Assembly: GCF_046105845.1 (NCBI RefSeq)
Contig: NZ_CP151004.1
Source of the DNA: Escherichia coli
Lineage (GTDB): Bacteria > Pseudomonadota > Gammaproteobacteria > Enterobacterales > Enterobacteriaceae
Direction: 5' to 3' (one strand)
DNA: 64,000 nt
Shown: positions 7,886 through 15,460 of the stretch, piece by piece
How the letters are laid out: the number at the start of each line of letters is the position of its first letter
Numbering within the stretch: position 1 is the first letter of the stretch
Notes under the pieces: model-generated
Databases searched by the model: none
Seen by the model: only the letters and a program-made list of their open reading frames with translations
Told to the model about the DNA's origin: nothing
Translations under genes and position numbers: made by a program

Positions 7886-8299
7886 ATGGCTAATAAACCT
7901 TCGGCAGAAGAACTGAAAAAAAATTTGTCCGAGATGCAGTTCTACGTGACGCAGAATCATGGGACAGAGCCGCCATTTACGGGTCGTTTACTGCATAACA
8001 AGCGTGACGGCGTATATCACTGTTTGATCTGCGATGCCCCGCTGTTTCATTCCCAAACCAAGTATGATTCCGGCTGTGGCTGGCCCAGTTTCTACGAACC
8101 GGTGAGTGAAGAATCCATTCGTTATATCAAAGACTTGTCACATGGAATGCAGCGCATAGAAATTCGTTGCGGTAACTGTGATGCCCATCTGGGGCATGTC
8201 TTCCCTGACGGGCCGCAGCCAACGGGCGAACGTTATTGTGTTAACTCTGCTTCTTTACGCTTCACTGATGGTGAAAACGGCGAAGAAATCAACGGTTGA
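7886..8299 (+). CDS. msrB: Peptide methionine sulfoxide reductase MsrB
   Basis: 137 aa from [12 protein letters not shown]; CxxC...CxxC zinc motifs and [13 protein letters not shown]. Confidence 0.92.
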
Positions 8300-8340
8300 A
8301 AAAACGATTCAGCAACTTATTCCACAGGAGCGGAAAAATT

Positions 8341-8613
8341 ATGAATCTTGATGACATTATCAACAGCATGACGCCTGAGGTATACCAGCGTTTGTCGACC
8401 GCCGTTGAACTGGGGAAATGGCCTGATGGCGTTGCGTTGACCGAGGAACAAAAAGAGAACTGCCTGCAACTGGTGATGCTGTGGCAAGCCCGCCATAATA
8501 CCGAAGCACAGCATATGACAATTGACACAAATGGTCAGATGGTTATGAAGAGCAAACAGCAGTTAAAAGAAGATTTTGGTATCTCAGCAAAGCCGATTGC
8601 CATGTTTAAGTAA
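8341..8613 (+). CDS. yeaC: YeaC, DUF1315 small protein
   Basis: 90 aa from MNLDDIINSM; synteny downstream of msrB. Confidence 0.85.
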   Translation: MNLDDIINSMTPEVYQRLSTAVELGKWPDGVALTEEQKENCLQLVMLWQARHNTEAQHMTIDTNGQMVMKSKQQLKEDFGISAKPIAMFK

Positions 8614-8982
8614 GTGGTTTGTCCCCTTTTTGCCGCGGCTATGAAGGGGATAGCCAACAATGACCCCACGACTCATCTCAATTATCTCGCCATGACCTGG
8701 CTAAGTCCCAGTCCGATCTCTTGCCGTCGCGTTCACGCCTGAATGACTTCTCCTGAACTTAAGTCTCAGACCTATTTGGCCGGTAATCCCTCTCGAATTT
8801 GCTCTTTTTGCGTTCCGCCTTCCACCAACCTGTAACAGACCCAGCCATTTTCTGCGTAATTGTGATCTGAGTTGTAAAACGCAGATCATTATCTGTGTTT
8901 TACAGATTTAATGTTGACCTCAAAAATCATGTGGGTAAGTATGATGACCATCTAAGCAAAACAAAACACAGAGGATGACGCA

Positions 8983-10059
8983 ATGAAAGCACTGGCTCGG
9001 TTTGGCAAAGCCTTTGGCGGCTACAAGATGATCGATGTCCCACAACCCATTTGTGGCCCGGAAGATGTAGTGATTGAAATTAAAGCCGCGGCAATCTGCG
9101 GCGCAGACATGAAGCACTACAATGTCGATAGCGGTTCTGATGAGTTTAACTCTATCCGCGGCCATGAGTTCGCAGGTTGTATTGCGCAGGTTGGTGAAAA
9201 AGTCAAAGACTGGAAAGTGGGGCAACGCGTCGTGTCAGATAACAGCGGTCACGTCTGCGGCGTTTGTCCGGCCTGTGAACAAGGTGATTTTCTGTGTTGT
9301 ACAGAAAAAGTAAACCTTGGTCTGGATAACAATACCTGGGGCGGTGGTTTTTCCAAATATTGTCTGGTTCCTGGTGAAATTCTCAAAATTCATCGTCATG
9401 CGTTGTGGGAAATCCCTGATGGTGTTGATTATGAGGACGCAGCCGTACTTGACCCTATCTGTAATGCCTACAAATCCATCGCGCAGCAATCGAAATTCCT
9501 TCCTGGTCAGGATGTGGTCGTCATCGGCACTGGCCCACTCGGGCTGTTCTCCGTACAAATGGCGCGGATTATGGGGGCGGTAAATATCGTCGTCGTTGGT
9601 CTGCAAGAAGATGTGGCGGTCCGCTTTCCGGTTGCAAAAGAACTGGGTGCGACGGCTGTAGTAAATGGTTCTACCGAAGATGTGGTGGCGCGCTGCCAGC
9701 AAATTTGTGGCAAAGACAATCTGGGACTGGTGATTGAATGCTCCGGTGCCAATATCGCACTGAAACAAGCCATCGAAATGCTCCGTCCGAACGGGGAAGT
9801 GGTACGCGTTGGAATGGGCTTCAAACCTCTTGATTTCTCGATTAATGACATTACCGCCTGGAACAAAAGCATCATTGGGCATATGGCCTATGACTCCACC
9901 TCATGGCGTAACGCTCTCCGGCTATTAGCCAGCGGCGCTATCAAAGTCAAACCGATGATCACGCATCGTATCGGCCTGTCGCAATGGCGCGAAGGGTTTG
10001 AAGCGATGGTCGATAAAACCGCAATCAAAGTGATCATGACTTACGACTTTGATGAATAA
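8983..10059 (+). CDS. ydjL: YdjL, Zn-dependent alcohol/polyol dehydrogenase
   Basis: 358 aa; MDR family with GHEFAG and Cys-rich structural zinc motif. Confidence 0.88.
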   Translation: MKALARFGKAFGGYKMIDVPQPICGPEDVVIEIKAAAICGADMKHYNVDSGSDEFNSIRGHEFAGCIAQVGEKVKDWKVGQRVVSDNSGHVCGVCPACEQGDFLCCTEKVNLGLDNNTWGGGFSKYCLVPGEILKIHRHALWEIPDGVDYEDAAVLDPICNAYKSIAQQSKFLPGQDVVVIGTGPLGLFSVQMARIMGAVNIVVVGLQEDVAVRFPVAKELGATAVVNGSTEDVVARCQQICGKDNLGLVIECSGANIALKQAIEMLRPNGEVVRVGMGFKPLDFSINDITAWNKSIIGHMAYDSTSWRNALRLLASGAIKVKPMITHRIGLSQWREGFEAMVDKTAIKVIMTYDFDE

Positions 10060-15324: not shown

Positions 15325-15460
15325 ATACTCAACACGATTCACCTCTGTTTCTGTGAAAACTGTGATGAAAATCTGTGATTCAAACAGGTTATTTTGAAAG
15401 TAAACATCGGTTATGCGATAATCGCGCTAATGTGATGTAAAAAGATACAGGGGTGTAATC

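Follow-up and report, generated by a model that had tools for sequence, protein, structure and literature searches.

GlpR, a DeoR-family regulator, acts at glpD through phased operators near the promoter and further operators inside the structural gene, with CRP as co-activator and a phosphorylated intermediate as inducer; DeoR, UlaR and LacR are likewise released by a phosphorylated intermediate. In the deo system, the operators O1, O2 and OE are palindromes of 16–17 bp with copies hundreds of bp apart, bound by a looping, oligomeric DeoR, and activation is CRP-dependent. Class I CRP-dependent promoters carry CRP centred near −61.5, −71.5, −82.5 or −92.5. The region upstream of ydjL in Escherichia coli, analysed here within a window of 64 kb (the whole stretch of DNA under study, 98.9% identical to E. 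coli chromosomes), can be compared with these systems. Our model of ydjL control shares with glp a DeoR-type sugar-phosphate regulator, phased and intragenic operators that would act at a distance, and CRP. However, the motif is unrelated, the strongest ydjL site lies 5′ of the −35 rather than over −10/+1, and binding, looping and inducer are what we infer for ydjL. With deo the model shares distant palindromic operators, a proposed looping oligomer and CRP; the deo operators overlap the −10 of two promoters, whereas ydjL has one predicted promoter and its distant site is intragenic. An earlier note on this DNA had described interleaved inverted repeats upstream of ydjL, and had offered them either as an operator for the DeoR-type regulator YdjF or as an RNA switch. 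We propose that this element is probably the upstream half of the ydjLKJIHG transcriptional control region, that is, protein-binding DNA comprising a YdjF operator array with co-control by CRP.

The plus strand of the window carries msrB, yeaC, ydjL, ydjK, ydjJ, ydjI, ydjH, ydjG, ydjF and ydjE in this order, with ydjF coming after ydjG. YdjF contains HTH_DeoR and DeoRC domains (Pfam matches at 2.8e-17 and 1.7e-49). The yeaC–ydjL intergenic region is 369 nt long and holds both inverted repeats, 79–122 nt 5′ of the ydjL ATG (Table 1). The region is present in 4,333 of 5,426 complete E. coli genomes, as a single copy per genome, and the promoter and 5′ region of ydjL find no match in 1,096 genomes of that set. 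Between 8826 and 8946, K-12 MG1655 and the window are identical, all 10 differences in the intergenic region falling outside this segment; other E. coli strains vary at 8868/8869 and 8910. According to PMC6561318, the ydjL promoter is silent in culture and becomes active in the mouse gut, as expected of a repressed, inducible operon. Directly 3′ of yeaC lies a hairpin, CCCCTTTTTGCCGCGGCTATGAAGGGG, at 8623–8660, and Term-seq places a strong yeaC 3′ end at K-12 position 1861655, equal to window position 8660 (Adams et al.). The segment 8644–8850, 5′ of the promoter module, is C-rich and G-poor (~20 C vs 10 G per 60 nt). Its composition is reminiscent of a Rho utilisation region, in agreement with the Rho-dependent termination that has been published for read-through transcripts early in ydjL.

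Table 1 Coordinates of features in the window (positions count from the first nucleotide of the 64-kb window).
Feature	Position	Strand	Sequence	Remarks
End of yeaC	8613
ydjL ATG	8983
Inverted repeat 1	8864–8887		GATCTG-N12-CAGATC	GATCTG 8864–8869, CAGATC 8882–8887; contains Dam GATC sites 8864–8867 and 8884–8887
Inverted repeat 2	8873–8904		TGTAAAAC-N16-GTTTTACA	TGTAAAAC 8873–8880, GTTTTACA 8897–8904
Candidate CRP site	8861–8876		TGTGATCTGAGTTGTA	left half TGTGA perfect, right half poor; centre 8868.5, ~−81 from predicted start
Site L, weaker putative YdjF site	8870–8886	+	AGTTGTAAAACGCAGAT	inverted relative to R, 21 bp from R
Site R, main putative YdjF operator	8891–8907	−	ATCTGTGTTTTACAGAT	arms ATCTGT / ACAGAT; centre ~−50 from predicted start
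Weak third phased site	8911–8926	+	ATGTTGACCTCAAAAA	20 bp after R; overlaps −35 hexamer
Predicted sigma-70 promoter PydjL	8914–8942	+		−35 TTGACC 8914–8919, 17-nt spacer, −10 AAGTAT 8937–8942
Putative internal operator	9290–9306		TTCTGTGTTGTACAGAA	ydjL codons 103–108; third-best matrix match in window
First phased site 5′ of ydjF (ydjG–ydjF spacer)	15371–15386	+	ATCTGTGATTCAAACA	the two ydjF sites are matrix ranks 4 and 6 in window
Second phased site 5′ of ydjF (ydjG–ydjF spacer)	15391–15406	+	ATTTTGAAAGTAAACA	as above

The interleaved inverted repeats were borne out by direct reading and by a pattern search, which place both where they had been described. Repeat 1 is the sole match to its pattern in 64 kb even when 1 mismatch is allowed (0.07 expected), and repeat 2 is the sole match to its own even at 2 mismatches (0.04 expected). 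A repeat finder extends repeat 1 to 11-nt arms (8863–8873 / 8878–8888) with one mismatch, and repeat 2 to a near-palindrome with 14-bp arms, TGTAAAACGCAGAT-CATT-ATCTGTGTTTTACA (8873–8886 / 8891–8904), with one G·T. Folded as RNA, 8858–8912 reaches −18.4 kcal/mol (z = −4.46), a stability equalled by 0 of 200 shuffles, which argues that the symmetry did not arise by chance. Short 6-bp inverted repeats are common, and the symmetry might in principle be a coincidence of an AT-rich intergenic region. However, only ~0.05 matches are expected per pattern, and the element is kept in ~24 species; given this conservation, coincidence can be regarded as refuted, with a virtually negligible residual probability.

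A search with YdjL, taking one genome per species, yielded 37 loci in which ydjL is accompanied by neighbouring ydj genes. The cluster continues through a YdjF homologue in 34 of the 37, the remaining three (L008, L023 and L026) ending before the ydjF position. Loci in Enterobacterales belong to Escherichia, Citrobacter, Klebsiella, Raoultella, Yokenella, Intestinirhabdus, Budvicia, Serratia, Enterobacillus and Symbiopectobacterium. Unexpectedly, ydjLKJIHGF also occurs in Firmicutes and Actinobacteria (L024–L039), namely in Lachnospiraceae, Eubacteriaceae, Enterococcus alishanensis, Anaerococcus, Megamonas and Atopobiaceae. The YdjL proteins of these phyla are 76–84% identical to E. coli YdjL, a similarity suggestive of transfer between phyla. 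Their ydjL-upstream regions contain arrays in which a ~16-mer occurs two to five times with a 20–21-bp period, as exemplified by the Atopobiaceae copies ATCTTGCAAACACAGA, TTCTGTGAAACACAGA and ATCTTGTAAACAGAAA.

A 16-mer weight matrix was built from the Firmicute and Actinobacteria arrays only; the seed for its refinement was picked when the enterobacterial sequences had already been seen, while the final matrix consists of sites from the distant phyla only. When the 64-kb window was scanned on both strands (127,970 positions), the top match was 8892–8907 within site R (ATCTGTAAAACACAGA on the minus strand, 21.1 bits), with the runner-up at 14.8 bits. The best match likewise falls at −89 to −93 from the ydjL ATG in 19 of 22 other Enterobacterales loci (11–19 kb each), all of which lie outside the matrix training. 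In Serratia and Enterobacillus, site R is perfectly palindromic (AAATCTGTGTTTCACAGATTT). Site L, matched at 8870–8885, scores 9.1 bits with the same distant-taxa matrix (rank 21 of 127,970) and the third site 7.8 bits (rank 46 of 127,970). The chance of finding ranks this high within one base of the 21- and 20-bp spacings is ~0.001–0.002 for each, and this phasing at E. coli ydjL is the same as in the distant-phylum arrays. A matrix match at 30115 lies inside a long ORF and was taken as chance.

These sites account for the appearance of the repeats. L and R carry one motif, roughly ATCTKTGAAACAnAGA with arms TCTGT / ACAGA, in inverted orientation and split by CATT, hence their cores read TGTAAAAC...GTTTTACA, while their ATCTG/CAGAT arms generate GATCTG...CAGATC and thereby the look of interleaved inverted repeats. 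The nested palindromes are thus best read as arising from cross-matching of two neighbouring 17-bp sites, which lie over a probable CRP half-site. The G at 8869 varies within E. coli and between genera and 8882 shows no compensating change. The anatomy proposed earlier, with two nested palindromes as the operator, gives way to adjacent sites of which only R is strong. Site L is kept as GTTGTGAAATGCAGAT in Citrobacter, Klebsiella and Raoultella, and is lost or replaced in the most distant genera. Given its poor score and its overlap with the CRP candidate, it could be something other than a YdjF site.

An alignment of the 160 nt 5′ of ydjL from 24 Enterobacterales shows conservation setting in abruptly at ~8857 and covering the sites, the −35 and the −10. 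The conserved blocks are, in order, TTTGTGATCT (with TGTGA and a C invariant), the L block given above, ATCTGTGTTTTAAAGATTT, TTGACC, a 17-nt spacer and AAGTAT; no conservation was seen 5′ of 8857 in this alignment. The distance to yeaC is ~2 kb in Citrobacter and Klebsiella, hence the promoter module belongs to ydjL and travels with it. PydjL scores 8/12, one below the threshold of the promoter scan; its TTGA is invariant and the A2 and T6 of the −10 are kept across the 24 species. The ydjL start site is predicted at ~8949–8950, which would give a leader of ~34 nt. Site R ends 6 bp before this conserved, predicted −35, and the weak third site overlaps it. The arrangement of an upstream operator array with an "ATGTTGA" site over the −35 is common to Enterobacterales and the distant phyla: such sites overlap the −35 in the Firmicute loci L025, L035 and L038 as well as at PydjF, and the succession of a strong site and an ATGTTGA site over the −35 is seen, among the Firmicutes, in L025 and L035 for example.

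The most invariant element of the module is TGTGA at 8861–8865, which together with a C is unchanged in all 24 Enterobacterales. The 16-mer 8861–8876 is the best match to TGTGA-N6-TCACA in the conserved promoter module, with 3 mismatches that all fall in the right half. An EMSA published in PMC8085971 showed binding of Crp to the ydjLKJIHG promoter fragment, a result that the invariant TGTGA fits, and the same paper lists the operon under "Crp activation". The likeness to class I promoters lies in this binding and in a perfect TGTGA with its flank (AATTGTGATCT) ~81 bp 5′ of the predicted ydjL start; it differs in that the right half-site matches at 2 of 5 positions only and in that the start is a prediction. 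We conclude that the TGTGA overlapping L is probably a CRP half-site through which cAMP-CRP activates PydjL. Across the 64-kb window the count of CRP-like TGTGA-N6-TCACA matches is at chance level. A further such sequence with 2 mismatches, TATGACAATTGACACA (8514–8529), follows the yeaC-internal start site of Adams et al. (primer from 8506).

The invariance of TGTGA and the in vitro binding of Crp raise the question whether a regulator other than YdjF occupies the sites, either CRP alone, through the TGTGA-rich repeats, or an unlinked transcription factor. CRP genomic SELEX also took up the ydjF upstream region, which contains the same TGTGA-containing words. However, R (TCTGT-N5-ACAGA) is not a TGTGA-N6-TCACA site, and the chance-level count of CRP-like matches offers no support to CRP acting alone. 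Furthermore, the same arrays occur in Firmicutes and Actinobacteria, where the YdjF homologue is the only regulator shared with the E. coli cluster. We therefore consider another regulator unlikely. A TyrR box, whose consensus is TGTAAA-N6-TTTACA, was also considered and rejected: the half-sites TGTAAA/TTTACA lie 20 nt apart, which is the wrong spacing, and are Escherichia-specific, being TGTGAA and TTTAAA in other genera.

The motif recurs at the promoter of ydjF itself, as autoregulation predicts. Two phased sites, kept across Enterobacterales, precede ydjF; the second overlaps the ydjF −35 TTGAAA (15394–15399), which is followed by the −10 GATAAT at 15417–15422. Shimada et al. list TTGAAA-17-GATAAT as the ydjF promoter (PMC3946193). 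The first ydjF site begins 23 nt before the −35, the same spacing as that of R at PydjL.

A further copy lies inside ydjL, 399 bp from R centre to centre; 14 of 15 positions agree with the R core. R and this internal copy are the only matches to the pattern TCTGTGTTNTACAGA in the window. In most Enterobacterales loci the internal site is the second-best matrix match. The 7-codon stretch at 9286–9306 ranks first of 351 for synonymous constraint in ydjL among the 24 Enterobacterales, with a synonymous variability of 0.036 at the internal-site window compared to a ydjL mean of 0.32. No conservation of the internal site was found in Firmicutes.

The comparative evidence supports the operator part of the earlier proposal and not its RNA part. 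The claim of a YdjF operator is strengthened by the presence of the same motif before ydjL in distant phyla, by its recurrence at ydjF and by its position abutting a conserved, predicted promoter. The RNA switch would operate in read-through transcripts starting at ~8506 in yeaC, with a hairpin at 8863–8888 competing with one at 8873–8904, and with 8886–8901 of the right arm alternatively pairing with the complementary 8963–8978, which covers the ydjL Shine–Dalgarno sequence; this would link translation to termination by Rho within ydjL. Each of the three helices is present in E. coli, and the middle one has the stability shown by the folding energy and z-score given above. Adams et al. worked with a cloned ydjL leader of 477 nt that starts at window position 8506 and takes in the element; a leader-plus-ORF fusion was expressed >2-fold more strongly in rhoR66S, and they report a bicyclomycin-sensitive region at K-12 position 1861188 (~window 9127). 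Together with the base composition of 8644–8850, C-rich and G-poor, these Rho effects and the leader indicate that the palindrome can be transcribed. The likeness to attenuators and riboswitches is that the E. coli sequence allows three helices which exclude one another, the last of them spanning the Shine–Dalgarno sequence, and that Rho termination of the long leader transcript has been published.

The ydjL region nevertheless departs from attenuators and riboswitches in having neither covariation, nor a conserved Shine–Dalgarno-sequestering helix, nor an Rfam family, and in lying 5′ of a conserved promoter. In the 24-species alignment, covariation of the helices I2, I5 and I1 does not exceed that of shuffles (I2 scores 0.118 vs 0.119), and I2 shows one two-sided change in 336 cells. 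Pairing is retained in 84% of cells for I2 (L–R) and 79% for I5, but in only 63% for the helix that pairs with the Shine–Dalgarno sequence. In distant genera L changes without compensation in R, and folding across the 24 species shows the L–R hairpin yielding to an R-only hairpin. A permissive Rfam scan of 8200–9400 returned chance-level matches to eukaryotic snoRNA and lncRNA (E above 1), and folding of the 146-nt context gave no stability beyond that of shuffles (z = −1.3). Furthermore, the element lies 5′ of the conserved −35/−10, the sequence 5′ of 8857 is not conserved, and Term-seq shows yeaC transcripts ending at ~8660 and lists no 3′ end at the palindrome. An RNA switch with alternative hairpins is hence very unlikely. 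The persistence of L–R pairing follows from the sequence conservation of both arms, and could still reflect a secondary role in RNA or DNA structure.

The stable 14-bp stem could alternatively serve as an intrinsic terminator or insulator against msrB–yeaC read-through before the ydjL promoter, and a consensus scan marks 8872–8905 together with ATTTAATGTT as terminator-like. However, only 4 of its 15 pairs are G–C and the U-tract is broken (tail AUUUAAUGUU). The Term-seq tables contain no 3′ end at the matching K-12 coordinates (18614xx), the yeaC 3′ end being that at 8660, and the element is still conserved in Citrobacter and Klebsiella, which have a different upstream gene. Hence, a terminator is extremely unlikely.

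The reading as an operator array is favoured by the distribution of the motif. Its presence at the operon promoter, at the ydjF promoter and inside ydjL, and its retention wherever the cluster and the DeoR-type regulator occur, form the standard signature of a cluster's own regulator. It is this co-localisation that suggests YdjF as the protein binding L and R. A search of the literature for YdjF binding or operator descriptions (ChIP-exo, SELEX) retrieved none. The TIRRDL segment of the YdjF HTH is conserved in an alignment across phyla; this segment is presumably generic to the DeoR family and says little on specificity.

In the model we propose, YdjF would bind R with high affinity and, from there, cooperatively occupy L and the weak site that overlaps the −35. 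An oligomer on the phased sites, lying on one helix face, would block the −35 region, and would probably loop from the upstream sites to the internal ydjL site. Release would be brought about by a phosphorylated pathway intermediate. The centre of R near −50 is a position more typical of activators, and R could equally serve an activator; FucR, of the same family as YdjF, is one. Given this position of R, repression would require looping and occupancy of the weak −35 site, two deduced features of the model. We tentatively extend the model to a repression loop between R and the internal operator, the 399 bp corresponding to ~38 helical turns. Such an operator may have fixed the synonymous positions in six or seven codons across Enterobacterales, and the operator–promoter module, in addition to the genes, may have been retained or transferred with ydjLKJIHGF among Firmicutes, Actinobacteria and Enterobacterales.

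The two Dam GATC sites lie 20 bp apart within the CRP/L region, and the first is kept in 21 of the 24 Enterobacterales. It is conceivable that a bound protein shields both from methylation. Heritable occupancy at Dam GATC sites is known from the methylation patterns of gut and pap, and the two sites might possibly make occupancy heritable at ydjL also. Natural variants of the region occur in E. coli. In strain ERL03-1416 (L079), the right arm of R is changed from ACAGAT to ACATGT and the second GATC is lost (changes at 8887, 8905 and 8906); this variant is possibly an operator-down allele. In strain 2017.15.02CC (L080, 2501–2600), the promoter module is kept and IS1 elements replace ydjL through most of ydjE.

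The repressor sites proposed for the ydjL promoter were previously undescribed, while the kind of control region is ordinary for sugar operons and the mechanism a familiar one. The ydjLKJIHG operon still belongs among the E. coli sugar-catabolic clusters without a known physiological substrate, and the operator motif, the predicted promoter and the candidate intragenic operator provide direct handles on it. If the model is true, deletion of ydjF or mutation of the operators should de-repress the operon. Purified YdjF together with its sites could be used to screen inducers and hence to find the substrate of the pathway, and the motif allows regulon prediction in gut Firmicutes that carry the same cluster.
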